Shown piece by piece: positions 1-18,581 of a DNA stretch of 18,581 bases. Below the pieces are notes generated by a model. The model did no database searches. It was not told the DNA's origin and worked only from the letters and a program-made list of their open reading frames with translations. This stretch comes from a virus: IMG/VR virus record IMGVR_UViG_3300045988_116509; one strand, 5' to 3'. A program made the position numbers and the translations under genes. Position 1 is the stretch's first letter, and the number at the start of each line of letters is the position of its first letter.

Positions 1-220
1 AGGAGGGGAGGGGTCCCAGCAGCAATCCTTTTTCCATAGCTGCTCTGTTGTGTGTTTTGCTGTTGCGCTCTGTTATTTGTTTTTCGTGGCTGTCTTTGTT
101 TTGTTTTTGTTTCTCTGTTTTGTTGTTTTCGGTTTTGTTCTTGTCTTTTTTGTTGCTGGTTTTTTTGCTGTTTTATTCTGCAGTTTGGTCGCGTGGTTTT
201 TTTATCGTTTTTTTGCCGCT
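1..220. repeat. Left inverted terminal repeat of a complete linear genome
   Basis: Bases 1-220 are the exact reverse complement of 18362-18581. I checked this by eye, and the ORF-track translations from both ends are identical. It consists of a 39-bp unique terminus (AGGAGGGGAGGGGTCCC...) followed by one 179-bp T/G-rich unit (40-218, about 5 A in total). Confidence 0.95.
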
Positions 221-282
221 TCGGCGTGTCGTGTTTTTTTGTTGTGTTATTATTATAAGTATCAACCAAGGATACAGAAAGG

Positions 283-720
283 ATGGTGTTTGAGGTGACT
301 GGTCTTTCAGTTAGATTCGACACTAGTGTGGATGATGGTATTGAGGTTATTACTTTGTACTATCGTGTTGATGGTCGTTTGTGTGGTTGTAGGTGTTTTA
401 CTGAAACGTATGATTCTTGTTCTGGCGTGACTTGTTCTGCTTTGTTGAATATGATGCGGTTTGTTTATCGTCTTAGGGGGGTGAAGATGTCGGAGCCTGG
501 TAGTATTATGGATGTTTGTATGCAATTGTATGCTCAGTGGTCTGAGCGGGGCGCTCATATTGCTGCTGTTAGGGGGTTTGAGCGTGGTGTGTTGGACGCC
601 GCGGAGGGTAGGTCCGAATGCGAAACGCTGCCCTGTGATATTCATAGGATGTATGAGGATGATTATTGTCGTGGATATCGTGAGGGGTATTGTCATGGTA
701 ATGAGCAACCGGAATTTTAA
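283..720 (+). CDS. Early protein of unknown function, Cys-rich (145 aa)
   Basis: ATG at 283 with AAGGA 10 nt upstream. Third codon positions are strongly T-biased, and the alternative frames look like composition noise. I recognise no domain. Confidence 0.7.
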   Translation: MVFEVTGLSVRFDTSVDDGIEVITLYYRVDGRLCGCRCFTETYDSCSGVTCSALLNMMRFVYRLRGVKMSEPGSIMDVCMQLYAQWSERGAHIAAVRGFERGVLDAAEGRSECETLPCDIHRMYEDDYCRGYREGYCHGNEQPEF

Positions 721-745
721 TAAGGTTGAGTATGAGGGGGAGCAA

Positions 746-964
746 GTGGTGTATTGTTTACGCATTGAGCCGCTTGTTTCGGACCATTCCATGTTCCCGA
801 TTTATTCGGAGGAATACACTGCATCGAATTATGTGAAGGAACTGCAAGCCATTGCGAAGATTATTAACGACGGCCATAGTTTTAAGGCTGACGTTATGTG
901 TCGTAAAATTGGCGTTTACTCATGTCAGGAGTTTAAGGGAGGTTGGGAACGCTATGAGGAATGA
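746..964 (+). CDS. Small early protein of unknown function (about 72 aa, start uncertain)
   Basis: This is the downstream part of track ORF 512-964. The portion overlapping 283-720 looks non-coding. GTG at 746 is preceded by GAGGGGGAG, and an alternative ATG lies at 791. Confidence 0.45.
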   Translation: MVYCLRIEPLVSDHSMFPIYSEEYTASNYVKELQAIAKIINDGHSFKADVMCRKIGVYSCQEFKGGWERYEE

Positions 965-1481
965 TGATAAGGACCGTACGAACTGGTTTGATGATGGCGT
1001 GCTTGATGATGACCGTGTGCGTCGTGTCATTCGTGGTCGTCATCGTAACCTACACTTGTGTGAATACAATCGTGGTGATGGTGATTGGGAGACGTTTTGC
1101 CGTACTGTAGCGCTGCTTAAGGGTTTTTATGAGCCTCAGGGGGCTCAGGTGGCGTTTGCTGACGGCATTGAACATGCGGCGGGCGTTTGCTTGTCTTTGT
1201 CTCCGAGTACGTCTCGTATTGGCGCGTTGGCGCGAACTCAGGATATTGAAATGCTGGGTGGTGTCATTTATGCTCCGGCGATGGTGGCGTGGTGTGCGGT
1301 CTGCCATGTTAAGGGCGCGTCATGCTATGAGATGTGTAAAACTTGGGCTGGTAACGAGTTTGCTCAAACTATCATTAAAATCGCGTGTCGTTGTTTTGAC
1401 AATTTAACTGATTCGCGATATACTGATGAAGACATCGTAAGGATGTCTCGACAGCAGCAACATTATGATAAGGTGATATGA
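954..1481 (+). CDS. Early protein of unknown function containing a CxxCH...C...C cluster (175 aa)
   Basis: Internal ATG at 954 of track ORF 852-1481, with AAGGGAGG at 935-942. It overlaps the stop of the upstream ORF by 11 nt. The sequence contains the motif CAVCHVKGASCYEMC. Confidence 0.65.
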   Translation: MRNDDKDRTNWFDDGVLDDDRVRRVIRGRHRNLHLCEYNRGDGDWETFCRTVALLKGFYEPQGAQVAFADGIEHAAGVCLSLSPSTSRIGALARTQDIEMLGGVIYAPAMVAWCAVCHVKGASCYEMCKTWAGNEFAQTIIKIACRCFDNLTDSRYTDEDIVRMSRQQQHYDKVI

Positions 1482-1798
1482 TTATGGCATACATTAAGCG
1501 AGCAAAGCATTATAGTATCGTGCGTGGCATTATGCGCGGCGACGATGGCGAACTTATTGACACCGAAGTGGTCGTGGATGGCGCATGCCGTACAGCTGAC
1601 ATGGCAATGAAGAAGGCCCGTAAGATTAATAAGGACATGCTGCCTATGTCCGCTGAATATCATGCTCAGGAGGCGCGCATGGATGAGGCAATCTATTGGG
1701 CTAATTGTGAGTTTGGAGATGATAGCATTGTTGACTATTCGGGTCCGGTGAACGGCAACGTGGTTGAGGATGATGTTATCTCTGAGGAAAATAAGTAA
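1478..1798 (+). CDS. Putative p6-like histone-like dsDNA or origin-binding protein (106 aa)
   Basis: The start overlaps the upstream stop as ATGA. It matches phi29 p6 in size (p6 is 104 aa), in position directly upstream of the SSB, in having an acidic C-terminal tail (VVEDDVISEENK), and in a loose by-eye pattern (M..DGE..., basic K/R patch). Confidence 0.35.
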   Translation: MIMAYIKRAKHYSIVRGIMRGDDGELIDTEVVVDGACRTADMAMKKARKINKDMLPMSAEYHAQEARMDEAIYWANCEFGDDSIVDYSGPVNGNVVEDDVISEENK

Positions 1799-1825
1799 TA
1801 ACCCCTATAAGGAAAGGCAACAATC

Positions 1826-2263
1826 ATGGCTGACAACGAAATGACCGTAGTGAACGGCAATAATTTTGCGGCAAACGGCGCTAACGCCGTATCCCACTTC
1901 TTCGACACTACCTCCATGGAAGGTAAGATGGCGCTCTATAACGCCATGCAGACTGCCGATAAGGTTGATGAACATCTTAATGAACCGTTGCATGTCACTA
2001 ACGTGCTTGCTCAGGCTATTGAGGTCGCTAATCAGGAAACCGGCGAAATTAACTCTTCTACCCGCGTTGTTATTCACGCGGAAGAGGGTGACTTCGCCGC
2101 TGCTTCGCCTACGCTGGCGCACGCTTTTGGCAACCTGTTCGCCATTTTCGGTGCGCCGAACACGTGGACTGCGCCTCTTGTTCTTAAGGTGGTGGAGAAG
2201 AAGAGCCGCCGTGGCCATAAGTTCTTCGACCTTGAATTGGTGACCGAGGGCAAGAGTAAGTAA
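1826..2263 (+). CDS. phi29 p5-type single-stranded DNA-binding protein
   Basis: Strong RBS (AAGGAAAGG). By-eye alignment to phi29 p5, recalled from memory, gives FDTTSMEGKMALYNA against FDTETLEGQIKIFNA and LKVVEKKSRRGHKFFDLEL against FKVKVVQGTSSKGNVFFSLQL. A strong hairpin follows the gene. Confidence 0.65.
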   Translation: MADNEMTVVNGNNFAANGANAVSHFFDTTSMEGKMALYNAMQTADKVDEHLNEPLHVTNVLAQAIEVANQETGEINSSTRVVIHAEEGDFAAASPTLAHAFGNLFAIFGAPNTWTAPLVLKVVEKKSRRGHKFFDLELVTEGKSK

Positions 2264-2326
2264 CATGAATGTCCACACCATTTGGTAATATGGTAATGTC
2301 CCTATAGGGGATGTTGCCGCCAGACT

Positions 2327-2374
2327 CACCCCCCCTCGTCGTTTTCCATCCTTGCGGCGAGGGGGGGTGTTTTA
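2327..2374 (+). terminator. Rho-independent terminator or attenuator after the SSB gene
   Basis: A 15-bp stem (CACCCCCCCTCGTCG with CGGCGAGGGGGGGTG, one G:U pair), a 13-nt loop, then TTTTA. Confidence 0.6.
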
Positions 2375-2392
2375 CACTCGTAAGGAGAGGCT

Positions 2393-3337
2393 GTGGCAAA
2401 ACGTAAAGCTAATCGACGCGCCGACAATCTGAAACGCAACGCCGCAATCAGGTCAGCTCAGGTACGTCAGGAGCGGGCGGTAAGGGATTATAGTACCGGA
2501 CGTCTCCCCAAACAAATCACGGAAACGTTTTTGGGAAGGCTTAGCGCCCAGCAGCTTGAACAGGTCGCACGACGTATCGGACAGGAGTTCGGGGAACAAC
2601 AGCAAGCCTTAAGGGCGCGGGATAATGAACCGTATCGGGTTGTGCCTGACGTGCGGATTACGAAACTCGATAGGGAGATGGCGGCTCGACCGTTGATATC
2701 CGACGTGGAGGTTGCCAATGCCCCTTCGAAGCGGCGGAAGACGCTGCGTCAACAGCAGCGCCGTCGGATTGAGGCGCGACGGAAAATCAAACGTGCCCAG
2801 CAGTTCGATGCGTTGAGCATGGCCTCTTATACCGTGGGTGAAGTGCGTGAAATGGAACGTGCGGGCGAATCTCCGTTCGATGTGTTGGGTACTCATACGG
2901 TTGGCGGTTCGGCGCGTGATGACCTTACGCGGAGTCGGGTGAACGTGTTCGGTACGGAACGTGGCATTAGCCATGCGCGTGCGATGATACGAGACGGAAG
3001 CCGTGGGAAGCTCAAACAGGAGATTTTGGAGTATGCCGGGCTTGTGGGACGTGCGCCGTTACGCGCGGGAACCAAGTGGATTCCCGAGAGCGAGGGGGCT
3101 ACGGATTTTGGTAGGGTCGAGCAGCAGTTGGAGGCGTTCGACTCCAGTGTCGCGCAGAAATTCGCGGCTTTGTCCGACCGTCAGAAACGCTGGCTGATGA
3201 ACAACACGAATTTTAGTGCCGTGGTGCGTGAAGCGACATGGTATAATGACAAGGCGCATAAATGGGAGACCAAAGCGGACGCGGGTGACGTTGACACGCG
3301 GATTGACGAATGGATGACCAGCGCAGCACGACACTAA
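2393..3337 (+). CDS. Putative terminal protein that primes DNA replication (314 aa)
   Basis: GTG start with AAGGAGAGG immediately upstream. It lies directly upstream of the protein-primed polymerase, as phi29 gene 3 does. The N-terminus is very basic (MAKRKANRRADNLKRN...), and size and charge pattern resemble known terminal proteins. I could not see direct sequence homology. Confidence 0.5.
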   Translation: MAKRKANRRADNLKRNAAIRSAQVRQERAVRDYSTGRLPKQITETFLGRLSAQQLEQVARRIGQEFGEQQQALRARDNEPYRVVPDVRITKLDREMAARPLISDVEVANAPSKRRKTLRQQQRRRIEARRKIKRAQQFDALSMASYTVGEVREMERAGESPFDVLGTHTVGGSARDDLTRSRVNVFGTERGISHARAMIRDGSRGKLKQEILEYAGLVGRAPLRAGTKWIPESEGATDFGRVEQQLEAFDSSVAQKFAALSDRQKRWLMNNTNFSAVVREATWYNDKAHKWETKADAGDVDTRIDEWMTSAARH

Positions 3338-3350
3338 AAAGGATGGAATT

Positions 3351-4811
3351 ATGAAAGAGCGTCGAATGGCGGCAACGGACGGCGCAACATTATTGACGGA
3401 TGACGGTGTGGAACCGTTGGGGACCTCTGCCGTCATCCGTCTTACCATGCTCGATTGTCATACGCGCGTATGGTGTGCCCACGGATGGCAAGATATCAAG
3501 CCCCTGGCCACCGAACTGTTGAATCGCCTTCCATTGCAACCGAACCCCAGTAAGGACGGCGTGTGGGGGACGTTTAACATTCGTGGCCACTTCTACAGTT
3601 TTCGGGTGCGCATGGGCGGTGTCACCGTGGATTTCTTGGACGTGCGCAATATCACGCGCGATGACGGGCTGAACGTTTCCCGTGAGACGTTTGGCGGTGC
3701 GAATGACTTGGAAACCACGTGGAACATCGTACAGGAGTGTGCCGCACTGAATCTCACGGGCGTCACGATAGCGTCCATGGCGATGACCGATTATATCGGC
3801 GGGGATTACGCCGGGTTCAAACGCCGGTTTCCGCCATTGGATAAGAAGGATTATCGCCGGATGCGTCCCGCCTACTATGGGGCGATAGTACGCAGCAAGC
3901 CGGGCGAATACGGGGATTGTAGGAGCTGGGATGTGAACAGTCTGTATCCGAGCATCATGCACGATATGCCCATGCCGGTAGGTACTCCCGTATGGTATGA
4001 CGGGGAATATCGGGATGATGATGATTATCCACTGCATATCGATGTCGTCGCGTTTGACGCAACGCTGAGGAAGGGGAAGACGGCGACGCTCACCAATATT
4101 CTGCCTGTATGGGGGTATGAGGGCGAACGCTTGGACAGTACGCTCGGCGTCGTCACCATGCCGGTCACGGATGTGGATTGGCAGACGCTTGTGGAAAACT
4201 ATGACGTCCACGTGTGGGAGCATGTCGGCGGCTGGAAATTCCGCAAGTCATACGCCCTTTATCGTGAGTATGTGGACAAGTGGTTTCATGTGAAGCAGAC
4301 CGCGACCGGGGAACGGCGGCAGATGGCGAAACTATTGTTGAATTCACTGGTGGGGAAGTTTGGGGCGTCGCTGTACCGGCCCATGCTGCATCCGAAGCCG
4401 TCCATGGATGGTGGAGTGGATTTTACCGTGGAACAACCCGAGTCGGCCAGCTCTCTCGCATGGCTGCCGACTGCCGCCTATGTCAACGCCTACGGTCGGC
4501 GAATACTGTCTCGTGCGATGAACGCGAACGCCGAACGTGTGCTCTACGCCGACACGGACGGCATGATATTGGAGGGGTTGGATGGGCCCATTGGCATTGA
4601 AACGGATGATAGGAAACTGGGCGCATGGAAGAATGACCACTCTTATGAGAAACTTCGTATTCTCGGCAATCGTAAATATTGCGGCGTAGAGGAAGATGGC
4701 GGCACGGTGATGCGGTTGAGTGGCGTGCATCGTGCCTCCCCCATTCCTTATGACCGGTTTCTGCCGGGGTCTCGCCATCGTAATGACGGTGGCCATACTT
4801 TCGTGCTATAA
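3351..4811 (+). CDS. Protein-primed family-B DNA polymerase, phi29 gp2-like (486 aa)
   Basis: Motif A is DVNSLYPSIM, motif B is KLLLNSLVGKFG and motif C is LYADTDGM. The phi29-like strings YPLHI, DKWFHVKQT and KLGAWK are also present. RBS is AAGGA, 7 nt upstream. Confidence 0.95.
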   Translation: MKERRMAATDGATLLTDDGVEPLGTSAVIRLTMLDCHTRVWCAHGWQDIKPLATELLNRLPLQPNPSKDGVWGTFNIRGHFYSFRVRMGGVTVDFLDVRNITRDDGLNVSRETFGGANDLETTWNIVQECAALNLTGVTIASMAMTDYIGGDYAGFKRRFPPLDKKDYRRMRPAYYGAIVRSKPGEYGDCRSWDVNSLYPSIMHDMPMPVGTPVWYDGEYRDDDDYPLHIDVVAFDATLRKGKTATLTNILPVWGYEGERLDSTLGVVTMPVTDVDWQTLVENYDVHVWEHVGGWKFRKSYALYREYVDKWFHVKQTATGERRQMAKLLLNSLVGKFGASLYRPMLHPKPSMDGGVDFTVEQPESASSLAWLPTAAYVNAYGRRILSRAMNANAERVLYADTDGMILEGLDGPIGIETDDRKLGAWKNDHSYEKLRILGNRKYCGVEEDGGTVMRLSGVHRASPIPYDRFLPGSRHRNDGGHTFVL

Positions 4812-4949
4812 TGACCGGTAGCGGGGTGTGCGTCCCAAGCTGATTCGATGGCCCGACCGACAGGCAGTCGGTAAGGCGATTCGGTCGGATGTAGACGTGC
4901 GTAGCCAACGCCCATTGACGGCGAGGGAACCCGCACAACCTAGCAATCC

Positions 4950-4980
4950 GGCCTGGCAGCGTGATTGCTGCCGGGCCTTT
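4950..4980 (+). terminator. Terminator-like hairpin downstream of the polymerase gene
   Basis: An 11-bp stem (GGCCTGGCAGC with GCTGCCGGGCC, one G:U pair) and a 6-nt loop, followed by only TTT. The U-tract is weak. Confidence 0.4.
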
Positions 4981-4997
4981 AACTGTAAGAGGTGATT

Positions 4998-5339
4998 ATG
5001 GACGATACCGAAAACGATGACAAGCCGGACATCGCGCCGGACACTGAATCGGACGCGACCGCCGATGATAATGCGCCGAATCCGGAGCCTGAGGTTCAGG
5101 ACGATGGCGAACCGGAGGATGCGGGGGACGATAAGAATGCCGATATGGCCAACCGTCTCAGCGCTCTCGAAGCGACCGTGGCCGAATTGTCGAAGACCGT
5201 TGAGGCGATGCGGGATGCGGCGGCCGAGCATGTGCTGAACGATGGTCCTGATGACGATAAGGAGCCGGAATCGTCCGAAATGGCCGACGATGACTATAAC
5301 GGCACTTACGGCACTTTCGACGACCTGTATGAAGAATAA
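4998..5339 (+). CDS. Scaffolding protein, phi29 gp7-like by position
   Basis: ATG at 4998 with AAGAGG 5 nt upstream. The protein is extremely acidic, with a central predicted coiled coil (ANRLSALEATVAELSKTVEAMRDAAA). It sits immediately upstream of the capsid gene. Confidence 0.6.
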   Translation: MDDTENDDKPDIAPDTESDATADDNAPNPEPEVQDDGEPEDAGDDKNADMANRLSALEATVAELSKTVEAMRDAAAEHVLNDGPDDDKEPESSEMADDDYNGTYGTFDDLYEE

Positions 5340-5360
5340 TCATTGGAAAGGAACATTATC

Positions 5361-7097
5361 ATGTCGACTTCTCCTGTGGTGACGCCGAAGCAGCAGCTCA
5401 GGCCGCTCACCGAATTCAACAACGCCCAGATTCTGAACATGATTCGTAATGAGGCGTCTCCCGAATATCAGCGGCGCATGCCTTCCGCCACTCAGATGAA
5501 CATGGACAGGCAGATGGCCACTCTCATGTCCAGCACTCAGCTTAAGAACGAGTTCTATTCGGCGCTGGTCAACCGTATTGGCGGCACGTACGTCAACACG
5601 TGGCGGTGGAACAACCCGTTGGGCGTGTTCCAGCGGGCCTCGCAAGCGTATGGCGATACGTGGCAAGAGATTGCCGTGGGTATGCCGTTGGCGCAAGTGT
5701 ACGACCCGAATGCGGAATATCTCGGTGCGGACAATTTCCGTAAGTGGAAGATTGACGTCGATTCGCTGTATCACCGGCTGGACTTCGCCCACTGGTATCC
5801 GGCCACAACGGACGACAAGACGTTGCAGCGTGCGTTTACGTCCGAAAACGGCTTGGCGTCGCTCACTTCGCAGATTCTCACCTCGTGCTATAACGCGGCC
5901 GAAGTCGACCTTTTCGAAGCCATGTGTCATCAGTTCGTCGAGTATGCGAAGCTCGGCGGCTATTGGCGTGTCCACATGAACAACGATTTGAACGATATGG
6001 GGTCCACGGAAACTCAGGCCCGTGACATGCTGAGGCAGATTCGCGCGTGGGCCGATACGTTGAAGTTCGTCAGCACGCGATACAATGCGCGGCACATGCC
6101 GACGTTCGCCCGTCCTGACGAGCTCGTATTGTTCTGTTCGCCTGAAGTCAAGTCGGCGCTTGACGTGCAAGGCTTGGCCACGGTGTTTCAGCGGACGGAC
6201 GCCGAGCCGACCATCGACCGAATCATCGTCATCCCACAGGACCGGTTCGGCATGGATGGCGTGCAAGCCATTCTCACCACCGATAAGTTCCTCATCGACA
6301 TTCCCGTCATCAACGAGATGACCCAGCAGACGAACCCGGTGAACATCAATTCGGTCAACCATTATCTGCATGTCCAGCACATCGTTTCGGTGTCCGGTTT
6401 CGCTCCCGCCGTAATGTTCTGGACCGGAGACGGTTCCACTGCGAACGCGGTGATGCCGACCGGTACTATGGCCAAAGCGCCGGAGTTCCAGCTGAAGCTG
6501 GCCATGTATGGTGGTGGCTCTGAGACTCCGGCCAATGTGGCTCGTGGCGGTGCGGTACAGGTCACCGCCGATACGACCATCAGCAATGAGGGTGGGGCTT
6601 CGTTCCGTTCGGATGCGGTCAGGTATGCCATCGGCGATACTGTGAAGCCGAAGAGCGATTACACGTACGTTTCGCCTACCGGCGTACTGGTCGTCGGCCT
6701 TGACGAACCGAACACTACCATTCCGGTCACGGCCACCGCGCTGTATACCAATCCTAAGACGCCGGAGGTGTCGGACACCGTATCCGCGGCTTTGGATGTG
6801 TCGGTTGTCGGCGATGGTGTCATCGGCTTCAATCCGTCCATCATCGCGTCGATTGCCGTTACGGTTCCGGCGGTGGCGGAGAAAAAGACGGTTCAGGCGA
6901 GTGCCGTGGCGACCATGATTGACGGACGGACGGCTGATGTGACCATGCAAGCCGCTTGGACTTCCTCCGTTTCGACGAATGCTGCGGTATCCGAGTCGGG
7001 TGCCGTCACCGGTGTTACGGCCGGCGCTTCCGTCATTACCGCCACGCTGTTCGGCGTGTCCGGAAAACGGAGCGTGACCGTAGCCAGCGGAAAGTGA
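5361..7097 (+). CDS. Major capsid protein, phi29 gp8-like, with C-terminal Ig-like (Big_2-type) domains
   Basis: By-eye matches to phi29 gp8: ILNMIRNE against IVNAIRN, NEFYSALVNRIG against NDFITSLVDRIG, CYNAAEVDLFEAM against IYNSAEVDEYEYM, and VSVSGFAPAVMF against LSVSRFANAVAF. The C-terminus (VQASAVATMIDGRTADVTMQAAWTSS...GAVTGVTAGASVITATL) fits the Big_2 pattern. Confidence 0.92.
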   Translation: MSTSPVVTPKQQLRPLTEFNNAQILNMIRNEASPEYQRRMPSATQMNMDRQMATLMSSTQLKNEFYSALVNRIGGTYVNTWRWNNPLGVFQRASQAYGDTWQEIAVGMPLAQVYDPNAEYLGADNFRKWKIDVDSLYHRLDFAHWYPATTDDKTLQRAFTSENGLASLTSQILTSCYNAAEVDLFEAMCHQFVEYAKLGGYWRVHMNNDLNDMGSTETQARDMLRQIRAWADTLKFVSTRYNARHMPTFARPDELVLFCSPEVKSALDVQGLATVFQRTDAEPTIDRIIVIPQDRFGMDGVQAILTTDKFLIDIPVINEMTQQTNPVNINSVNHYLHVQHIVSVSGFAPAVMFWTGDGSTANAVMPTGTMAKAPEFQLKLAMYGGGSETPANVARGGAVQVTADTTISNEGGASFRSDAVRYAIGDTVKPKSDYTYVSPTGVLVVGLDEPNTTIPVTATALYTNPKTPEVSDTVSAALDVSVVGDGVIGFNPSIIASIAVTVPAVAEKKTVQASAVATMIDGRTADVTMQAAWTSSVSTNAAVSESGAVTGVTAGASVITATLFGVSGKRSVTVASGK

Positions 7098-7105
7098 TAT
7101 GATGG

Positions 7106-7127
7106 GAGTGTGGCTTAAGCCGCACTC
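7106..7127 (+). other. Stem-loop immediately 3' of the capsid gene
   Basis: GAGTGTGGC-TTAA-GCCGCACTC, a 9-bp stem with one G:U pair. Confidence 0.4.
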
Positions 7128-7150
7128 TCTCACGGTGTGATGCAAGTCAG

Positions 7151-7190
7151 GACCCGGAACGTGACCTTCGTGAGCGTTCCGGGTCTTGTC
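7151..7190 (+). terminator. Terminator or attenuator after the capsid gene
   Basis: A perfect 11-bp stem (GACCCGGAACG with CGTTCCGGGTC) and a 13-nt loop, followed by TTGTC. Confidence 0.5.
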
Positions 7191-7200
7191 ATACTGGAGG

Positions 7201-9504: not shown

Positions 9505-9516
9505 TATGATGATGTC

Positions 9517-11258: not shown

Positions 11259-11261
11259 AAA

Positions 11262-11894
11262 ATGTCAGTTAATGCCCTTATTCCGCGCACGTATCCGCTG
11301 GTGCGCATTCCAACGTCGGTACCGTTCACCTACCGTGACGGAGCGACCACGTTGCAGCTGATTGAAAGCATCCGGTGCAATCTCGACGGTTTGCAGTCCG
11401 ATTTTAATACGCTGGTCGAACAAGTGAACCAGTCGATTGCGGACAGTGACGCCACCGTCCGGCAACTTGCCGACAATCTGGTTGGCCAGATGGCCATCCT
11501 CCGCGAGGAGCTTGTCCAGCTCATCGAACAGTCACAGTCCACCGGATTGGCGTGGTCGCCGGTGTACGGCAAGCAAGACGCCTTGCAGACGGTACTTGAT
11601 GGCATGTACGATAATACCCGCAACCATGCGCTGTTCTGGTCCGATTACGACGGCATGGAACTTGAGGCATCCACGTATGACGGTCTGGGGTTGAGCGCCC
11701 GCGAATTTGACCTCCACGCCACCGCCGTCGACAATGATGTACCCGGGAATTTTCCGGGACGGTCCCAATTCCCCTACGGCAAGAGCATTCCCGAGGGTGA
11801 ACCGACTGAAGTGTATTTGACCAAGTTCGACGCGGACGCCACTTACGTTCAGCGTCATCCGACCGTGTCGAACTTCGAGAATCGTGAGGTGTGA
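11262..11894 (+). CDS. Virion structural protein of unknown role (neck or appendage-associated, coiled-coil N-terminal half)
   Basis: Tightly packed between the collar and fibre genes, with GGGAG upstream. It has heptad-like segments (LVEQVNQSIADSDATVRQLADNLVGQMAILREELVQLIE). I recognise no domain. Confidence 0.45.
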   Translation: MSVNALIPRTYPLVRIPTSVPFTYRDGATTLQLIESIRCNLDGLQSDFNTLVEQVNQSIADSDATVRQLADNLVGQMAILREELVQLIEQSQSTGLAWSPVYGKQDALQTVLDGMYDNTRNHALFWSDYDGMELEASTYDGLGLSAREFDLHATAVDNDVPGNFPGRSQFPYGKSIPEGEPTEVYLTKFDADATYVQRHPTVSNFENREV

Positions 11895-11896
11895 AC

Positions 11897-12574
11897 ATGA
11901 CGGCCTCCAACCATACCGAACATTACGGATTAAGCCAGTATATGGAGGACGACTGCCCCACGTATACCGGCGACTATAATGGCGACATGTCGAAGATTGA
12001 CGCGGCCATCTATGCGGCGTCACAGTCCGGCGGTACGGGCGGATTGGCGACGGTTGCGCATGACGGCACGTTGACGGGGGATGGGTCGACGGCTGATGCG
12101 TTGTCCGTCGTCGGTTCGTTTAAGAACGCGACGAGACTATATAAGCCCGCCGCCACCAAGTTCGACCCGAACGATTGTAACGACCCCGGAGTCTACTACC
12201 TTTCCATGCAGAGGAACGACGTAAATGTCGCGAACATTCCGTCGGACCTACGGAATATGTTCATCAGGGCATCTCTGGTCGTATGCAGATGCGGGTACGG
12301 GAATATCGATATCGCACAGTTATGGTTGAATAGGTCGGGAGGCGAGGGGGAACCGTTCATCGCATATCGTATCCATGGCGATGCATGGACTTCATGGCAA
12401 CGCCTTGCGTTCGTGAGCGATATCCCGGACGTTTCCGCATTGACGGCCCGTATCGCCGCCTTGGAGTCTCGAGTGTCGGCGCTCACTGCCGCCGCAACCC
12501 CGAGTGTCCCGGCCGCGACTCCGAGCGCTACGGGCCTCACCCCCATATGGTTGGACACGAATCATTCCCGATGA
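11897..12574 (+). CDS. Tail fibre or receptor-binding protein 1
   Basis: The N-terminal motif TEHYGLSQY...GDYNGDMSKIDAAIY is shared with the next fibre gene. There is a globular middle domain and a C-terminal coiled coil (ALTARIAALESRVSALTAAA). ATG at 11897 follows GAGG. Confidence 0.6.
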   Translation: MTASNHTEHYGLSQYMEDDCPTYTGDYNGDMSKIDAAIYAASQSGGTGGLATVAHDGTLTGDGSTADALSVVGSFKNATRLYKPAATKFDPNDCNDPGVYYLSMQRNDVNVANIPSDLRNMFIRASLVVCRCGYGNIDIAQLWLNRSGGEGEPFIAYRIHGDAWTSWQRLAFVSDIPDVSALTARIAALESRVSALTAAATPSVPAATPSATGLTPIWLDTNHSR

Positions 12575-12581
12575 TTATAAT
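12552..12581 (+). promoter_or_regulatory. Candidate sigma70-like promoter for the esterase fibre gene
   Basis: TGGACA (12552-12557), an 18-nt spacer, then a perfect TATAAT (12576-12581). A 7-bp stem-loop at 12588-12607 follows, which could form a 5' mRNA hairpin. Confidence 0.3.
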
Positions 12582-12633
12582 AGTATTCGGGTAAGCATGG
12601 TTACCCGTAGTATGGAAAGCGAGGAACCTCACC

Positions 12634-14094
12634 ATGAGTAGTCTCAACAAAACCCCTCATTATAATCTCAGCCAGTTCGGCGACAGTCCGGACGACAAGC
12701 CGTCATGGCGTGGCGATTACACTGCGGACATGAGCCGAATCGACACGCAAATATATAGGAACGCGACCGATATCACCACGGCGACGGCAGCGGCGAACAA
12801 TGCGAACACGGCGGCGGGTCAGGCGAAAACCGCAGCCGATGGCGCTTTGAGCCTTGCACAGGCCAATAAGACCGATATCGCCGAACTGAACGGCTATTTC
12901 GACGAACTTGGCGTCACTTCCACGGTCACGGCGCAAAATCTGCTGACCACCATCAACGGCAAGGCCGATTCCAGTACTCTCGCAAGTAAGGTGGATGCCG
13001 GTGCCGTATACACCAAGGGCGAAGCGGATGGTCGTTATCTGCAATTAGGCGGATATTCCGGTACGGCGGCGAGCATCAACTCCACTGCCATCACGGCGAA
13101 GGATGATGCCAGTGCGGCGAAGTCGACGGCTGCCGTCGCGCAGACTGCCGTGAACTCCGTCGCCGCCGTGACCACCGACCTTACCGAATTGGTGTGGATT
13201 GGTGACAGTCTCAGCACCGGCTATCAGCCGGGGAGGTCCGCGCTCGCCGAAAGCAAGCGTATCCCCCAGCGTGTCGCGTCGAAGCTGGGGCTTAATCTGC
13301 ATGTGTTCGCCAATAATGCCAGTGGCTATGGTACGGCGGGCGATGGGGGTAAGACGTTCCTTACCCTTGCCAGCGAGGCGCTTTCCGCAATGGATGTCAA
13401 CGCCCGTAGGAAGGTCAAGTATGTGGTGGTCTGCGGTGGTAGGAACGATACCGGCGACACGTATACTTCGGCGCTTGGCGTGTTCGACACGCTATTGGGT
13501 ACCGGACCGCGTGCGGACCGGAATTTTCCGAACGCTTCGGCTCACGCCATTTTCCTCTGGGATAATGCGAGCATTCCACCCGCGAACGCCAAGGCGATGA
13601 ACGGCATCGCTTCGGCGGCGGCGGCGAATGGTCTGACATGGCATCCTTGGACGTGGACGCTTGGCATGGGTCATGCTGATTGGTTCGTCGAAGAAAACGA
13701 CCCTCATTACAATGAGGACGGCGCGAATTATATCGCCGGCATTCTCGCTTCGGCCATTGCGGGCGATTGCGAACCGTGCATGGGTGAGCTTTGCGGCGAA
13801 GTGGATATGACCGGCGGTTGTTCGGGTAAGCTTCATTGGCGTTTCGCGGGCGGCGTGGTAACGCTTACCGCGAAGTTCACCGCTTCCAAACCGGCCGGTA
13901 CTATTGCGACGCTGCCGAAGTTCATTGCCCTTGGTGATAATTTCATCATGATTTTGGGCAATTCGGGCAATCAGCAAGCGTTTGCCCGCTTGGATGGCGG
14001 CGTTCTGAACATAACCGGTGTTGTCGGTGGAGGCATATTGTCCGGTAGTTGTTGGATTACACCCCAGAGTTTCATTCCTATCGGTAGAGAGTGA
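12634..14094 (+). CDS. Tail fibre or spike protein 2 with an SGNH/GDSL hydrolase (esterase or deacetylase) domain
   Basis: The N-terminal anchor motif is TPHYNLSQF...GDYTADMSRIDTQIY, followed by an Ala-rich coiled coil. The SGNH blocks are WIGDSLSTG (block I), VVCGGRNDTG (block III) and NDPHYNEDGANYIA (block V-like). RBS is GAGGAA. Confidence 0.75.
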   Translation: MSSLNKTPHYNLSQFGDSPDDKPSWRGDYTADMSRIDTQIYRNATDITTATAAANNANTAAGQAKTAADGALSLAQANKTDIAELNGYFDELGVTSTVTAQNLLTTINGKADSSTLASKVDAGAVYTKGEADGRYLQLGGYSGTAASINSTAITAKDDASAAKSTAAVAQTAVNSVAAVTTDLTELVWIGDSLSTGYQPGRSALAESKRIPQRVASKLGLNLHVFANNASGYGTAGDGGKTFLTLASEALSAMDVNARRKVKYVVVCGGRNDTGDTYTSALGVFDTLLGTGPRADRNFPNASAHAIFLWDNASIPPANAKAMNGIASAAAANGLTWHPWTWTLGMGHADWFVEENDPHYNEDGANYIAGILASAIAGDCEPCMGELCGEVDMTGGCSGKLHWRFAGGVVTLTAKFTASKPAGTIATLPKFIALGDNFIMILGNSGNQQAFARLDGGVLNITGVVGGGILSGSCWITPQSFIPIGRE

Positions 14095-14114
14095 TGGCGT
14101 TTTCATGTGAATCA

Positions 14115-14142
14115 TACCCCGTCCGGCATGCTGGGCGGGGTA
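14115..14142 (+). promoter_or_regulatory. Stem-loop overlapping the likely SD of the downstream hydrolase gene
   Basis: TACCCCGTCC-GGCATGCT-GGGCGGGGTA, a 10-bp stem with one G:U pair. The G-rich 3' arm ends 6 nt before ATG 14147. No U-tract follows. Confidence 0.4.
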
Positions 14143-14146
14143 TACT

Positions 14147-15418
14147 ATGATTATGGACAATACGGCATATTATGCGATGTACGTAATCGGCACCGTGGAA
14201 AGCAATTGCGATTGGGGTGCGTGCAATTACGTTGACGCAATCACTATGGGCATGATGCAATGGTATGGCAGTCGTGCTCGGAATCTTTTGGAGCGCGGAC
14301 GCACCGCAGACCCGGGCGGATGGACGACGTTCGCTACGGCAGCTCCCACATTGGCCCGGCAAGTACAGGACAATGACATCGATTGGACATCGCGCTACCT
14401 TTCCACCGCCGAAGGCAATGCGTGGAAGGCGTGGGCGCAGCACGACGAAAACCACGCTTTTCAAGAGGCGCAATGGGAGGCGGATTGGGACGGGTACCAG
14501 TCAACTATGACCAACTTCGGGTTCCCGTCCGATAATGTCAAAGAGCGTATCATGTGGGCGTGCGCTTATCACCAGTCGCCCGCACGGGCGCAGCACGTAC
14601 TCGCGTCATGTTCGGGCACCGCCACGCTTGAGCTGATTTACTCGACGATTTTGGCGGACGGCGTGCTGGGGCAATACCGCAATCGGTACACCACCGCATA
14701 TAACCTATTGAACGCATGGGATGGCACTTCCGCGCCGCCCGACTTCGGCCAAACCTCCGAACCATCCGATACGCCCGGAGGCGACCGACCCGGCATCGAC
14801 GGAAAGCCCGGCAGCACCGCATGGATACAATTGCAAGGCGACAACCTTATCCTTCACAGCGGGGGTACTGTTTCCGTTTTTATGAAAAGCTCCGCGCAGA
14901 CATGGATGTACAAGACTTCCGAATCCACCGAGCCGAGCGGTGGACAGACTGGCGGCGGCTCAGGCTCGGGCGGCGGTAGCGAGGATGCGGCGCGGGTTGT
15001 GGAATGGTTGAGGTCACGAATCGGCAAATACGCCTACTCGCAAGGGGCGGGACGGTTGGACCCGGATTCAACCGGGTACGGCGATTGCAGTTCGGTCTGT
15101 TGGCGTGCATATCAGGATGTGTTGGGTATCGATGTGGGTACATGGACAGGGCAGATGGCCGGCAAGGGTACGCGCATATGCGGTAGTTCTGACACAAGCG
15201 TATCTGACGCCATCCGCATGGCACACGCCGCCGATTTGCTGTTGCTGGACTGGGGGGCGTACACGCAGTCATGGGACCATGTGGAAATGTTCACCGGTGA
15301 TGGCAAGGATGAGACATTATCGCATGGAGGGCCGGGGAACGGCCCGAATCCGTTCGCCGCGTCCGGTGAGATGAATATGGCGAGCCGGTGGGAGATACGC
15401 AGATACATTACCGGCTAG
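14147..15418 (+). CDS. Tail-associated peptidoglycan hydrolase (phi29 gp13 analogue): lysozyme or transglycosylase-like N-domain, Gly/Ser linker, and NlpC/P60 C-domain
   Basis: The N-terminal half contains GTVESN...MMQWYG, which is glycosidase-like. The linker is GGQTGGGSGSGGGS. The C-terminal half carries GYGDCSSVCWRAY (catalytic Cys) and WDHVEMFTG (His), typical of NlpC/P60. Confidence 0.75.
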   Translation: MIMDNTAYYAMYVIGTVESNCDWGACNYVDAITMGMMQWYGSRARNLLERGRTADPGGWTTFATAAPTLARQVQDNDIDWTSRYLSTAEGNAWKAWAQHDENHAFQEAQWEADWDGYQSTMTNFGFPSDNVKERIMWACAYHQSPARAQHVLASCSGTATLELIYSTILADGVLGQYRNRYTTAYNLLNAWDGTSAPPDFGQTSEPSDTPGGDRPGIDGKPGSTAWIQLQGDNLILHSGGTVSVFMKSSAQTWMYKTSESTEPSGGQTGGGSGSGGGSEDAARVVEWLRSRIGKYAYSQGAGRLDPDSTGYGDCSSVCWRAYQDVLGIDVGTWTGQMAGKGTRICGSSDTSVSDAIRMAHAADLLLLDWGAYTQSWDHVEMFTGDGKDETLSHGGPGNGPNPFAASGEMNMASRWEIRRYITG

Positions 15419-15471
15419 TGTGACGATGAGCCTGTGGGTGTCCACCGATTTTATTACTGTCGTATGATATC

Positions 15472-16578
15472 ATGGATAATATGGAGAAACTGTTAGACGA
15501 AGGCGATTACTACGACTATGGTCACGTGCTATCATATCACGCGCCATGGATGTTCGTTATCGGCGCTCGCGGTCTCGGCAAGACCTATGGCGCCAAGAAA
15601 CTGGTCATCGGTGACTGGATTAAAAAACGCTGGCAATTCATCTATCTGCGACGCACCGCGGAAGAACAGAAGAACAAAGGCACATGGTTTGCGGACATTG
15701 CGGAACAATACCCGGATTTGGAATTCAGAGTGTCCGGCAATCAGGCGGAATGCCACTGGCTGGACGATAGGGACACCACCGTGGACAAGCACGGAAAGAC
15801 ACGCCCGACATGGCATATCATGGGATATTTCATCGCCCTCAGTCAAGCCGGACAAGTCAAGTCGGTCGCCTACCCCAAGGTACGGACCATCATCTTCGAT
15901 GAAATATTTCCCGACAACATGCGGTATCTCGGCGGCGAAGTCACGGCGCTCGAAGAATTCTACAATACCGTCGACAGGTGGAACGACCGCGTGAGAGTCA
16001 TCATGTGCAGCAACGCCGTAACCCTCGCCAACCCATATTTCAGCGCCTTCAACATCAACCTCAAACCACAGCTTGACCACCACACGCAATACCAGCGTTA
16101 TTGCGGCGGGTTCATCATGGTTGAATTAGCGGATTACGGCGGATTCAGCGCCAAGGTCGCCACATCGAAATTCGGAACGTTCCTACGCAACTATGATGAG
16201 AACTATGCAAACTATGCAATCGACAATGATTTCAGGGACAACGCCAACACCCTCATCAGCGACTTCAACAACGCCGGATACGCGTTCACGCTGAGGACCA
16301 CCGAATACGGTGTCTTCAACGTATACCAACAATTAAGCGATGCCGATGAGGTATTGTATATCATCACCAAGAAACAGCCGAAAATCACCCGCGACTTTAC
16401 GTTCGACTATCGGCTGGTCGATAAGGATTGCATCATGCTCAAACGTTCGGACGACATGACACAGAAAATATTAAACGCCTATCGCGTCGGCCGGCTACGG
16501 TTTGAAACACCGCAAATCAAAGCGGAATTCAGTATGATTCTTGGCGGCTTATTACAACAATCAGGCATAAGAAAGTGA
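15472..16578 (+). CDS. DNA encapsidation ATPase, phi29 gp16-like
   Basis: Walker A is FVIGARGLGKTY (phi29 has FVIGARGIGKSY) and Walker B is RTIIFDE (phi29 has STIVFDE). RVRVIMCSNAVTLANPYF matches phi29 RVRCICLSNAVSVVNPYF. There is no obvious SD upstream. Confidence 0.93.
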   Translation: MDNMEKLLDEGDYYDYGHVLSYHAPWMFVIGARGLGKTYGAKKLVIGDWIKKRWQFIYLRRTAEEQKNKGTWFADIAEQYPDLEFRVSGNQAECHWLDDRDTTVDKHGKTRPTWHIMGYFIALSQAGQVKSVAYPKVRTIIFDEIFPDNMRYLGGEVTALEEFYNTVDRWNDRVRVIMCSNAVTLANPYFSAFNINLKPQLDHHTQYQRYCGGFIMVELADYGGFSAKVATSKFGTFLRNYDENYANYAIDNDFRDNANTLISDFNNAGYAFTLRTTEYGVFNVYQQLSDADEVLYIITKKQPKITRDFTFDYRLVDKDCIMLKRSDDMTQKILNAYRVGRLRFETPQIKAEFSMILGGLLQQSGIRK

Positions 16579-16585
16579 GGAAACG

Positions 16586-16957
16586 ATGACGGAAACCTTA
16601 TTTTACGAAACACTGGCCATACTCGTGTTCATCATCATGGACTACGTTACCGGCGTTATCAACGCCGTAATGCACGGCAAACTTTCCAGCACGAAAATGC
16701 GGGAGGGACTCGGCAATAAATTCGCCTACCTTTGCGTATTCTTCATCGCATGGTTCATCGACTTCGAAATGGAACACATAGACATCGGATTCCATAGCGC
16801 ATTGACACCGCTAGTTACCGTAGGTATTGTTTTCATTGAGCTGTCCAGCATCATCGAAAATATCGGCAAAATCAATCCCAAACTCAAAAACGCCCCATTC
16901 ATGAACATCTTCTCCCAAAACGACAATCAGCCAAACCACAAGGAGGACCGACCTTGA
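16586..16957 (+). CDS. Holin (Phage_holin_4_1 / LL-H-type pattern)
   Basis: Three hydrophobic segments. The characteristic strings are DYVTGVINAV...SS..MREGLGNK and IELSSIIENIGKINP. RBS is GAGGAA, and the endolysin gene follows directly. Confidence 0.85.
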   Translation: MTETLFYETLAILVFIIMDYVTGVINAVMHGKLSSTKMREGLGNKFAYLCVFFIAWFIDFEMEHIDIGFHSALTPLVTVGIVFIELSSIIENIGKINPKLKNAPFMNIFSQNDNQPNHKEDRP

Positions 16958-17823
16958 ACGATATCACATGGATAGGCTCACCCAACCACTACAACGGCCG
17001 TAACGGCCTCACCATCACCCACATCACACTCCACATCATGGTCGGCCACCTCACCGGCACCGACAGCGTATTCCAACACCCCAGCGGAGCCTCAGCACAC
17101 TACGGAATCGGCGCAAACGGTGCCATCCATCAATACGTCAACGAAAACGACGGCAGCTGGAGCGACGCAAACTATACGAGCAACAACAGCACCATCAGCA
17201 TCGAACACGAAGGCGGCATGAACGGCATCCCATGCACCCAAGCATGCATGGACGCATCAGCCAAACTCTGCGCCGACATCGCCCGACGACAAGGATGGAC
17301 ACACCTCTGGCATGACGGACTCAACGGCAACATCTGGCTCCACCGCGAAATACCCGGCACCGACCATTACGGCTGCCCCGACCTAGCACCAAACGGACTT
17401 GACGTAAACTACGTCATCAACAAAGCAAACCAAATACTAGAAGGAGACGACATGTCAGCAGAAGACGTGTGGAATTTCGACCAAAACGGTGTAAAAATGC
17501 GCGACCGCATGCAAGGCACCGACACAGCAGCCAACGCCACCAAAACCGAACTCTTCCGCCTCTCAAAATGGGACAACAAAACCCACGCATCCCCACTAGG
17601 CAACCTCATCATCGAACAGCCAATCCAAGGAGGAGCCAAACTCGGCGACCGAGTAGCCGGCATCGACAACAAAACCAGCCAACTCATCACACAAGTAGCC
17701 GCACTCACCGCAGCCGTAAAAGCCCTCTCCGAAAGCATGGGCGCCAACCCCGACACCATCGCACAAACCGTGCAAAACGCCGTAAAAGCCAAACTAGACT
17801 CGCTCACCATCACAGTGGAATAA
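16954..17823 (+). CDS. Endolysin: N-acetylmuramoyl-L-alanine amidase (Amidase_2/PGRP fold) with a non-canonical C-terminal domain
   Basis: TTG start 6 nt after AAGGAGGA, overlapping the holin stop as TTGA. The amidase pattern is HIMVGH...SAHYGIGANGAIHQYVNENDGSW...ISIEHEG...HREIPGTDHYGCP. Confidence 0.88.
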   Translation: MNDITWIGSPNHYNGRNGLTITHITLHIMVGHLTGTDSVFQHPSGASAHYGIGANGAIHQYVNENDGSWSDANYTSNNSTISIEHEGGMNGIPCTQACMDASAKLCADIARRQGWTHLWHDGLNGNIWLHREIPGTDHYGCPDLAPNGLDVNYVINKANQILEGDDMSAEDVWNFDQNGVKMRDRMQGTDTAANATKTELFRLSKWDNKTHASPLGNLIIEQPIQGGAKLGDRVAGIDNKTSQLITQVAALTAAVKALSESMGANPDTIAQTVQNAVKAKLDSLTITVE

Positions 17824-17834
17824 CACCACAACAT

Positions 17835-17868
17835 AAAGAAAAGCCCCGCAGATTGCGGGGCTTTTTTT
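17835..17868. terminator. Bidirectional rho-independent terminator
   Basis: AGCCCCGCA-GAT-TGCGGGGCT forms a 9-bp GC-rich stem. It is flanked by an A-run (17835-17842) and a T-run (17862-17868). It lies between the + strand endolysin stop and the - strand ORF stop. Confidence 0.8.
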
Positions 17869-17900
17869 ATCAAGCAATAAAACCATCCAACAAAACAGTC

Positions 17901-18105
17901 TCAATACTCGCAAGCACCCAACATTTCCTCAAAAATATCACGCGGAAACGCGCAACACGAACCAATACCATTAGCCTCCATAAAATCAGCCATCTCCTCA
18001 ACCACCTCTGCAACACCATAATCACAATCATCCAAATCAGACTTGTCCAAATAATCATAAACATAATCCCAAACAGCATCCCTATCAACACTATGACCAA
18101 AACAT
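17901..18105 (-). CDS. Small, very acidic right-end early protein (about 67 aa) transcribed leftward; reading frame interrupted just after its SD-linked ATG
   Basis: The minus-strand frame from 18104 to 17901 reads ...GHSVDRDAVWDYVYDYLDKSDLDDCDYGVAEVVEEMADFMEANGIGSCCAFPRDIFEEMLGACEY*. Its NNT codon bias matches the left-end genes, and the rare A residues fall at codon position 2. AAGGAAAGGA plus ATG (18105-18103) lies one base out of frame, across a T4 run. This ORF is absent from the track because no long ATG, GTG or TTG-initiated version exists. Confidence 0.45.
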
Positions 18106-18183
18106 CAACAATCCTTTCCTTGAAGTTCGCAACAACAGTACACTATACAACAAACAATACAACCAAAACACGACACGCCGAAA

Positions 18184-18542
18184 CGGCAAAAAAACGATAA
18201 AAAAAACCACGCGACCAAACCGCAGAATAAAACAGCAAAAAAACCAGCAACGAAAAAGACAAGAACAAAACCGAAAACAACAAAACAGAGAAACAAAAAC
18301 AAAACAAAGACAGCCACGAAAAACAAATAACAGAGCGCAACAGCAAAACACACAACAGAGCAGCGGCAAAAAAACGATAAAAAAACCACGCGACCAAACT
18401 GCAGAATAAAACAGCAAAAAAACCAGCAACAAAAAAGACAAGAACAAAACCGAAAACAACAAAACAGAGAAACAAAAACAAAACAAAGACAGCCACGAAA
18501 AACAAATAACAGAGCGCAACAGCAAAACACACAACAGAGCAG
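18184..18542. repeat. Tandem direct duplication of the ITR unit, present only at the right end
   Basis: The inner copy is 18184-18363 (180 bp) and the outer copy is 18364-18542 (179 bp). They differ by two substitutions and one extra A in a homopolymer. The left end carries a single copy (40-218). Confidence 0.9.
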
Positions 18543-18581
18543 CTATGGAAAAAGGATTGCTGCTGGGACCCCTCCCCTCCT
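18362..18581. repeat. Right inverted terminal repeat
   Basis: Exact reverse complement of 1-220. The window ends precisely at the repeat, as expected for a full-length linear genome. Confidence 0.95.

Follow-up and report, generated by a model that had tools for sequence, protein, structure and literature searches.

What reverses the base composition of the two DNA strands at opposite ends of a phage genome whose large genes all point the same way? The question is raised by the virus record IMGVR_UViG_3300045988_116509, a stretch of 18,581 bp, the whole of which we call the window. It carries a 244-nt inverted terminal repeat (ITR) at both ends, with the two copies 96% complementary. Judged from its sequence, the window holds the complete linear genome of a phi29-like Bifidobacterium podophage, and its gene content and ends point to a protein-primed mode of replication. 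All of its large genes lie on the + strand, from the single-stranded DNA-binding protein (SSB) through the endolysin, including those for the major head, tail, and upper and lower collar proteins. An earlier note on this DNA had described a skew that mirrors itself toward the two termini, and had ascribed it to deamination of the strand displaced as single-stranded DNA (ssDNA) when replication starts from both ends. We find that the mirror-image skew, in which the strand with its 5′ end at a given terminus (the 5′-ending strand) is rich in G and T, is real and strong.

The 5′-ending strand is rich in G and T at both termini

Composition is given here as the fraction of G+T on the + strand, and Fisher p values compare a region with the centre (2401-15471), where this fraction over all sites is 0.515. 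On the left, G+T is 0.795 in the ITR (1-244) and 0.631 in the adjoining non-ITR region (245-1481; p=6e-15). On the right, it is 0.395 in the coding region (15472-17823; p=5e-27), 0.279 in the unique non-coding region (17824-18164), and 0.185 in the terminal repeat region (18165-18581). Four 60-nt hand counts reported in the earlier note (361-420, 9001-9060, 16021-16080, and 17581-17640) were all exact on recount. The ITRs alone are ruled out as the source of the symmetry, because the skew continues at 245-1481 and 15472-18164, and no inverted similarity was found between the genome ends beyond the ITR region. The mirror symmetry is thus not a trivial consequence of the repeats.

The skew is concentrated at silent sites. 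At fourfold-degenerate positions, G+T falls from 0.82 in the two leftmost genes pooled, through about 0.55-0.56 in the centre, to 0.07 in the endolysin, with p values of 1e-11 to 1e-32 for the differences at the ends. From left to right, the 18 per-gene values are 0.89, 0.78, 0.55, 0.64, 0.65, 0.55, 0.68, 0.59, 0.54, 0.62, 0.46, 0.51, 0.50, 0.57, 0.49, 0.34, 0.33, and 0.07. The fourfold sites of the first gene consist of T 0.61, G 0.28, C 0.08, and A 0.03, and those of the endolysin of A 0.36, C 0.57, G 0.04, and T 0.03. The first two codon positions are shifted only mildly, and the non-coding terminal DNA has a skew of the same sign as the silent sites. The earlier statement that the skew peaks in the ITRs holds when all sites are counted, but still more extreme values are reached at fourfold sites in the first and last genes (0.93; 0.03-0.07). 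G+C drops at both genome ends.

A further suggestion, that the skew reshapes the encoded proteins, fits the left end. The two leftmost proteins contain 6.9% and 4.8% Cys, compared to about 1% elsewhere, and their combined fraction of Phe, Val, Cys, Trp, and Gly is 0.25-0.30. For the endolysin the effect is weak, as its fraction of His, Thr, Asn, Pro, Gln, and Lys (0.325) is to be set against 0.24-0.31 in central genes of the window and up to 0.36 in central families of relatives.

The skew is tied to genome position

Relatives were collected by scanning IMG/VR with the connector protein, which returned 80 whose connectors are 93-99% identical and whose genomes, where alignable, share 75-96% of their nucleotides with the window. 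Among cultured phages, the nearest relatives are the Bifidobacterium dentium phages BD811P1-3, in which gene order is identical and matching proteins are 25-56% identical (88% for the endolysin); synteny with the window extends to BP1 and Av-1. Together, the window, the IMG/VR clade, and the three BD811P isolates provide 56 near-complete genomes, and in every one of them the left is rich in G and T and the right in A and C (56/56; mean G+T of 0.69 and 0.60 on the left and of 0.35 in the last 1 kb, with 0.48 in the centre). The isolates BP1 and BadAztec2 have the mirror skew as well.

We then clustered + strand open reading frames (ORFs) into families at ≥70% identity. Six left-end families, less than 70% identical to each other, have fourfold G+T of 0.63-0.85, and six equally distinct families of the right-end lysis region have 0.09-0.28, compared to 0.41-0.57 for the central families of the clade. 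Since every family at a given end is skewed alike, the skew is tied to position and not to particular genes.

The skew follows the strand rather than the coding direction

Because the identified genes within 3 kb of the ends, bar one small right-end ORF, lie on one strand and yet are skewed with opposite signs, a coding-strand effect can be separated from an end-linked one. The + orientation is backed by homology for the SSB, family-B DNA polymerase (PolB), capsid, tail, collar, ATPase, holin, and amidase genes, and by conserved relatives for 852-1481 and 1478-1798. For 283-720, it is backed by a protein-like sequence, in contrast to the low-complexity antisense ORF at 307-792. The earlier note had placed the genes of both arms on the + strand; this holds for the identified large genes but not for the extreme right, where 17901-18050 is a probable minus-strand gene. 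Its third codon positions are G/T-rich, the mirror image of the left-end genes. This ORF is common only to the window and one relative, L004; other clade members have a different conserved family there.

In fact, many clade members have minus-strand genes in their last 300-700 nt. One such family (MFKVNAYVTEIEPGHVY...; L012 17375-17886 and relatives) has a conserved start and stop and a ratio of nonsynonymous to synonymous polymorphism (pN/pS) of 0.49, whereas the two remaining frames give 0.75 and 1.05. In this family and two other protein-like minus-strand ORF families at the right end, fourfold G+T is 0.79-0.92 on the coding strand (0.08-0.21 on the + strand), so that the + strand composition of these genes equals that of the adjoining + strand lysins. 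The converse arrangement is found in Microbacterium phage PineapplePizza, whose left-end genes are protein-like and on the minus strand; + strand G+T is nevertheless 0.73-0.81 there, and 0.12-0.46, mostly below 0.4, in its right-end genes.

Coding-strand or translational bias is therefore rejected, because the skew has opposite signs on one coding strand and the same sign on opposite coding strands. The rule is that the 5′-ending strand is G/T-rich at either end, irrespective of gene direction. The independence from transcription direction proposed earlier is thus borne out by the minus-strand right-end genes and by the left genes of PineapplePizza. The opposite signs, together with the reversed gene orientations in relatives, separate a replication- or end-linked mutation pressure from effects of transcription or translation.

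Substitution spectra match the skew

Substitutions were inferred from codon alignments and neighbor-joining trees of each family, using Fitch parsimony at codons with an invariant amino acid, and counts were normalized by branch-length-weighted opportunity; parsimony on recombining metagenome genomes makes these estimates approximate. As the earlier note had anticipated, the 5′-ending strand shows an excess of C>T and A>G at both ends. At fourfold sites on the left, the C>T/G>A rate ratio is 2.70 (1.69-4.33) and the A>G/T>C ratio 2.07 (1.26-3.38). In the centre, which here comprises 2400-15400 and the clade's central genes, they are 1.24 (1.14-1.33) and 1.00; in the ATPase, 0.52 and 1.13; and on the right, 0.29 (0.23-0.37) and 0.67 (0.47-0.95). 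When the window is compared with L004 and the changes are polarized by five outgroups, the trend agrees with the clade spectra. From left to centre to right, the inferred rates imply equilibrium G+T of 0.71, 0.51, and 0.30, close to the observed 0.73, 0.49, and 0.24; the skew is therefore being maintained at present.

In the pooled data, T/(T+C) on the 5′-ending strand is 0.72-0.78 at the ends compared to a baseline of about 0.30, and G/(G+A) hardly moves. Replacement of C by T as the dominant change, together with the fall in G+C at both ends, is the pattern of cytosine deamination. An APOBEC-like, motif-specific deaminase is rejected as its source, since no strong 5′-neighbor preference of C>T was found. 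Changes toward and away from the skew have an equal share on terminal branches (p=0.3-0.9); this weakens the case for selection against anti-skew changes, although the test is itself a weak one.

A separate observation is that, in the centre, C>T mildly exceeds G>A on the coding strand, which would fit weak deamination of the non-template strand during transcription.

A proposed model based on deamination of an exposed strand

The explanation that we favor, and to which we give somewhat better than an even chance, is a strand-asymmetric mutation pressure, mainly cytosine deamination, acting on the 5′-ending strand where it is made single-stranded near the ends. The 5′-ending strand would often be single-stranded over the terminal 1-3 kb, being displaced when a polymerase starts at that end. 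According to the replication model for phi29, the displaced strand is the 5′-ending strand (PMC4974454), and we carry this assignment over to the window phage. Unpaired cytosine deaminates far faster than paired cytosine, and the change would be fixed the next time the strand is copied. Near each terminus, the strand that has its 5′ end there would thereby gather mainly C-to-T and fewer A-to-G changes, turning G/T-rich while its complement turns A/C-rich. The chemical basis for skew through strand exposure is established for mitochondrial DNA (mtDNA) (PMC3269012). For the window phage, we infer single-strandedness plus deamination as the cause and the start of replication as the exposing event. 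The sign of the skew, its focus on silent sites, the substitution spectra, and the independence from transcription all agree with the deamination proposal of the earlier note; the shape of the gradient, its spread among relatives, and the transversions do not.

These disagreements, and some further observations, weigh against the model. With initiation at both ends of a genome of length L, the time spent single-stranded at distance x from an end is proportional to L-2x, which predicts a linear gradient to the centre. The skew is not proportional to this predicted time, and what had been described as a gradient toward the centre is instead a terminal plateau followed by decay. The pooled left profile stays at 0.77-0.79 for 750 nt and comes down to 0.50 by about 1.9 kb, and the right profile stays at 0.24-0.27 for 1.5 kb, reaches 0.41-0.45 at 2-3 kb, and is about 0.48 thereafter. 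The decay has a length constant of approximately 0.9 kb in the left arm and 1.8 kb in the right. Compared with a line, an exponential gives the better fit, by a clear margin on the left (sum of squared errors 0.052 versus 0.216) and a modest one on the right (0.058 versus 0.083), and the left arm beyond 3.5 kb slopes in the wrong direction for the linear model. A linear exposure-time gradient is thus rejected for its poorer fit. In addition, the running profile of this genome steps near 1450, 15500, and 16950, at the gene boundaries 1481, 15472, and 16954. Transversions toward G and T are also raised (T>G relative to A>C, for example), for which deamination gives no account, and rate ratios taken from a skewed composition near equilibrium cannot by themselves separate mutation bias from selection.

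The distribution among phages adds to this list. Neither phi29 nor Cp-1 has a mirror terminal skew at fourfold sites, and the skew is slight in Curtobacterium phage Reje and in 15 diverse environmental relatives. In Av-1 the skew is clear in the right arm only, which in the Av-1 clade forms a long gradient from 0.69 to 0.22, and the left arm is irregular. Since phi29 and Cp-1 share the replication mechanism and are unskewed, the skew is not a generic outcome of protein-primed strand displacement.

If exposure is the cause, the confinement of the skew to the ends means that exposure must be end-limited, and the differences between lineages mean that it must vary among them. Candidate sources of end-limited exposure would be slow or abortive early elongation, stalled forks, and nibbling of 3′ ends followed by refilling, all of which fit the shape of the profile and are indistinguishable on these data. 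A broader proposal, which we advance tentatively and regard as more apt to be wrong than right, is that DNA metabolism in the actinobacterial phi29-like phages includes a distinct phase that is limited to the ends and absent in phi29, for example long-lived 5′ ssDNA tails of 1-3 kb. Such a phase could stem from slow or abortive early elongation, from head-on stalling against late transcription, or from 3′ nibbling and refilling, and would drive silent sites beyond 90% G+T and reshape the Cys-rich early proteins.

Alternative explanations

The profile shape that troubles the deamination model would suit selection acting on strand composition, with a G/T-rich terminal 1-3 kb of the 5′-ending strand kept for some function of the ends. 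A displaced strand that lacks complementary bases cannot fold, or binding of SSB or an origin protein might be favored, and silent sites would be the cheapest to change. A discrete domain with a plateau and a drop, steps at gene boundaries, differences in skew among lineages with a common replication mechanism, and an increase in every class of change toward G and T, transversions included, all speak for this reading. Yet anti-skew changes are not enriched on young branches, and the predominance of T replacing C with a fall in G+C resembles a chemical signature rather than a general keto preference. phi29 itself lacks the skew, and we know of no requirement for unfolded or G/T-rich ends in that phage. 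We consider selection unlikely. Transcription-associated mutagenesis, which we rate as less likely again, would require strong inward early promoters at both ends, so that the non-template strand, deaminated in the transcription bubble or in R-loops, is the 5′-ending strand. The left + strand genes and the right minus-strand genes do both run inward with G/T-rich coding strands, the left domain stops at an operon-like boundary, and the central coding-strand C>T excess shows the expected sign. This explanation fails for the holin, the ATPase, and above all the endolysin, the most skewed gene, which are transcribed outward and have A/C-rich coding strands; a strong bidirectional terminator (17836-17870) lies between the lysis genes and the right-end unit, and the left genes of PineapplePizza run outward in a region where the + strand is still G/T-rich. 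Selection and transcription are both less likely than deamination of an exposed strand.

The earlier note had reasoned that sharp blocks coinciding with gene boundaries would speak for mosaic acquisition instead of deamination. Sharp steps of this kind do exist in this genome, the endolysin module appears to have been exchanged recently (88% amino acid identity to BD811P versus 25-56% for the others), and lysin families vary in skew from 0.09 to 0.28. All of this would suit a history in which terminal genes came from sources of other composition, or have codon usage of their own, and the symmetry beyond the ITRs is a coincidence. However, about a dozen families in two mirror positions skew as predicted in 56 genomes and several genera, the non-coding DNA is skewed as well, and current substitution rates reproduce the skew. 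Fourfold values of 0.07 or 0.93 also lie far outside the range of central genes (0.46-0.68). With all families at a given end skewed alike, mosaic acquisition as the sole cause is largely refuted, and we regard it as very improbable.

Relation to other systems

Cytosine deamination on an exposed strand has its closest parallel in vertebrate mtDNA, where the exposed single strand likewise turns G/T-rich via C>T and A>G, most strongly at fourfold sites, and where the skew of the displaced H-strand shapes codon and amino acid usage (PMC3269012, PMC4182315). In mtDNA, however, the skew scales with ssDNA time along most of the genome, whereas in the window clade it occupies the terminal 10-15% at each end, forms two mirror-image domains on a linear molecule, and has only a minor A>G component in the pooled data. 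In bacteria, the GC and keto skew between leading and lagging strands is similar in that the strand exposed in replication has excess G and T and the effect is separable from that of transcription. The bacterial skew amounts to a few percent, compared to a range of 7% to 93% fourfold G+T in the window, and the protein-primed model has no lagging-strand synthesis. Adenovirus, too, has a linear protein-primed genome with strand displacement from both ends. Grigoriev reportedly described in 1999 opposite GC skew in the two halves of this genome, changing about linearly along it and attributed to single-strand exposure; the window clade would differ from this in its flat centre and extreme ends.

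phi29 and Cp-1 are alike to the window in having linear genomes with terminal repeats, a polymerase and ATPase that are homologous by tblastn and alignment, and an SSB, connector, and lower collar that belong to shared PHROG or Pfam families. They differ in lacking the terminal mirror skew and in keeping the ExoI, ExoII, and ExoIII catalytic residues of the polymerase, and the window differs from them in having all of its large genes on one strand. Our literature searches for such a terminal skew in phi29-like phages found no description, and a recent review of these phages makes no mention of any skew (PMC11476376). The principle is already known from mtDNA (PMC3269012); what is new is how strong the skew is, that it is confined to the ends, and that only some lineages have it.

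The magnitude is such that fourfold G+T passes from 93% to 7% within 18 kb, beyond the range of central genes, and protein composition is altered. That the skew is confined to the ends and missing from phi29 argues that the textbook picture of symmetric strand displacement misdescribes ssDNA exposure in these phages, a question made testable by the cultured BD811P, BP1, and BadAztec isolates. If there is indeed an end-limited phase, the skew profile would let the in vivo dynamics of replication in uncultured phages be read from their sequence, as a footprint. In practice, the skew marks the true genome ends and the orientation of metagenomic phi29-like contigs. It also breaks the reversible, strand-symmetric substitution models used in phage phylogenetics.

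Features of the window and other observations

The features discussed above are collected in Table 1. The left skewed domain ends at about 1450, and the ATPase and holin (15472-16957) form an intermediate step of the right one. Similarity to phi29 extends to the SSB (PF17427), connector (phrog_2038), lower collar (phrog_3225), and packaging ATPase (phrog_2150), and the polymerase matches PF03175 (E=2.8e-33) and phrog_1907 (E=7e-52), with 32% identity to phi29 gp2 over residues 204-497. The ORF at 2393-3337 has no Pfam or PHROG family match, and its assignment as a putative terminal protein is based on its place between the SSB and polymerase genes, as in Av-1 and PineapplePizza. PHROG and Pfam searches with the small left-end and right-end proteins (283-720, 17901-18050, and the minus-strand family of L012 and relatives) also gave no match. 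The small acidic minus-strand ORFs at the extreme right lie behind the terminator and are probably a leftward early operon of the sort found in phi29, Cp-1, and Av-1.

Table 1. Coordinates of features in the window
Feature	Coordinates	Strand	Remarks
Left inverted terminal repeat	1-244		Inverted repeat I1; + strand T 54%, G 26%, C 15%, A 5%
Leftmost gene, hypothetical, Cys-rich	283-720	+	Fourfold G+T 0.89
Second left-end gene, hypothetical, Cys-rich	852-1481	+	Fourfold G+T 0.78; 35% identity to BD811P protein of equal position and orientation
Transition zone: hypothetical gene (1478-1798) and phi29-type SSB (1826-2263)	1478-2263	+	Fourfold G+T 0.55-0.64; SSB by PF17427, phrog_6243
Putative terminal protein	2393-3337	+	Position between SSB and polymerase
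Family-B protein-primed DNA polymerase	3351-4811	+	PF03175, phrog_1907
Packaging ATPase	15472-16578	+	phrog_2150; fourfold G+T 0.34
Holin	16586-16957	+	phrog_199; fourfold G+T 0.33
Endolysin (amidase_2), most skewed gene	16954-17823	+	PF01510; fourfold G+T 0.07
Bidirectional terminator hairpin	17836-17870		12-bp stem, T runs on both strands; separates endolysin from right-end region
Probable small acidic gene	17901-18050	-	In L004, this frame stays open at 62% identity, and the overlapping frame is interrupted by stops
Right inverted terminal repeat plus extra tandem copy of ITR interior	18165-18581		Inverted repeats I1, I2, I3; + strand A 57%, T 4%

The extra copy of the ITR interior (18165-18378), offset by about 179 nt, makes the right terminal repeat region longer than the left. 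Long ORFs rich in Phe, Cys, Leu, and Val run through the ITRs on the G/T-rich strand (48-298 and 18091-18534), which is explained by the need for A in stop codons. Such ITR-spanning ORFs, some of which are annotated in the BD811P records (BD811P3_00022, for example), are probably spurious, and the skew should serve as a warning to gene callers about terminal ORFs of this kind.

Two observations concern individual genes of the clade. The endolysin region (16850-17817) is 87% identical in nucleotides and 88% in amino acids to the BD811P lysin, compared to 25-56% for the other matched proteins, which indicates that the lysis gene was exchanged recently between distantly related Bifidobacterium phages; across the clade, at least six lysis-region gene families occupy the endolysin position. 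The SSB genes of the BD811P phages (L002 1699-2133 and L003 1754-2197) are sharp outliers, with fourfold G+T of 0.26-0.33 and C of 0.57-0.64 directly after a left block at 0.61-0.84; strong codon bias in a highly expressed gene may be the reason.

In the window, BD811P3, and BadAztec2, the DNA polymerase (3351-4811; L002 3204-4655; L085 12884-14293) is about 100 residues shorter than the enzymes of phi29, Av-1, PineapplePizza, and Cp-1. It is without the residues of the ExoI DxE (where it has TDGATLL), ExoII NxxxFD, and ExoIII YxxxD motifs, and without part of the thumb. In the window, the Pfam match is confined to residues 132-340, and the short enzyme's N-terminal domain is highly conserved across 67 clade members. 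These features suggest that the window may encode a proofreading-deficient protein-primed polymerase. Mutants of phi29 in the exonuclease site are also impaired in strand displacement. An end-limited phase of DNA metabolism might connect to this apparent loss of proofreading and strand-displacement motifs in the Bifidobacterium clade; as an explanation of the skew itself, a polymerase without exonuclease motifs is rejected, because PineapplePizza keeps the motifs and is strongly skewed.

Finally, the gap between the polymerase gene and the next gene (4804-4985) contains a conserved extended -10 promoter (TGcTATAAT), a structured and near-invariant RNA of about 130 nt, and a terminator hairpin. 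An Rfam search for packaging RNA (pRNA) gave no match at E≤1. The RNA has a fold z-score of -3.5, with compensatory changes in the terminator hairpin and seven pairs with double changes across 16 genomes that are only about 79% identical overall, and it is a candidate for the packaging RNA of the clade.

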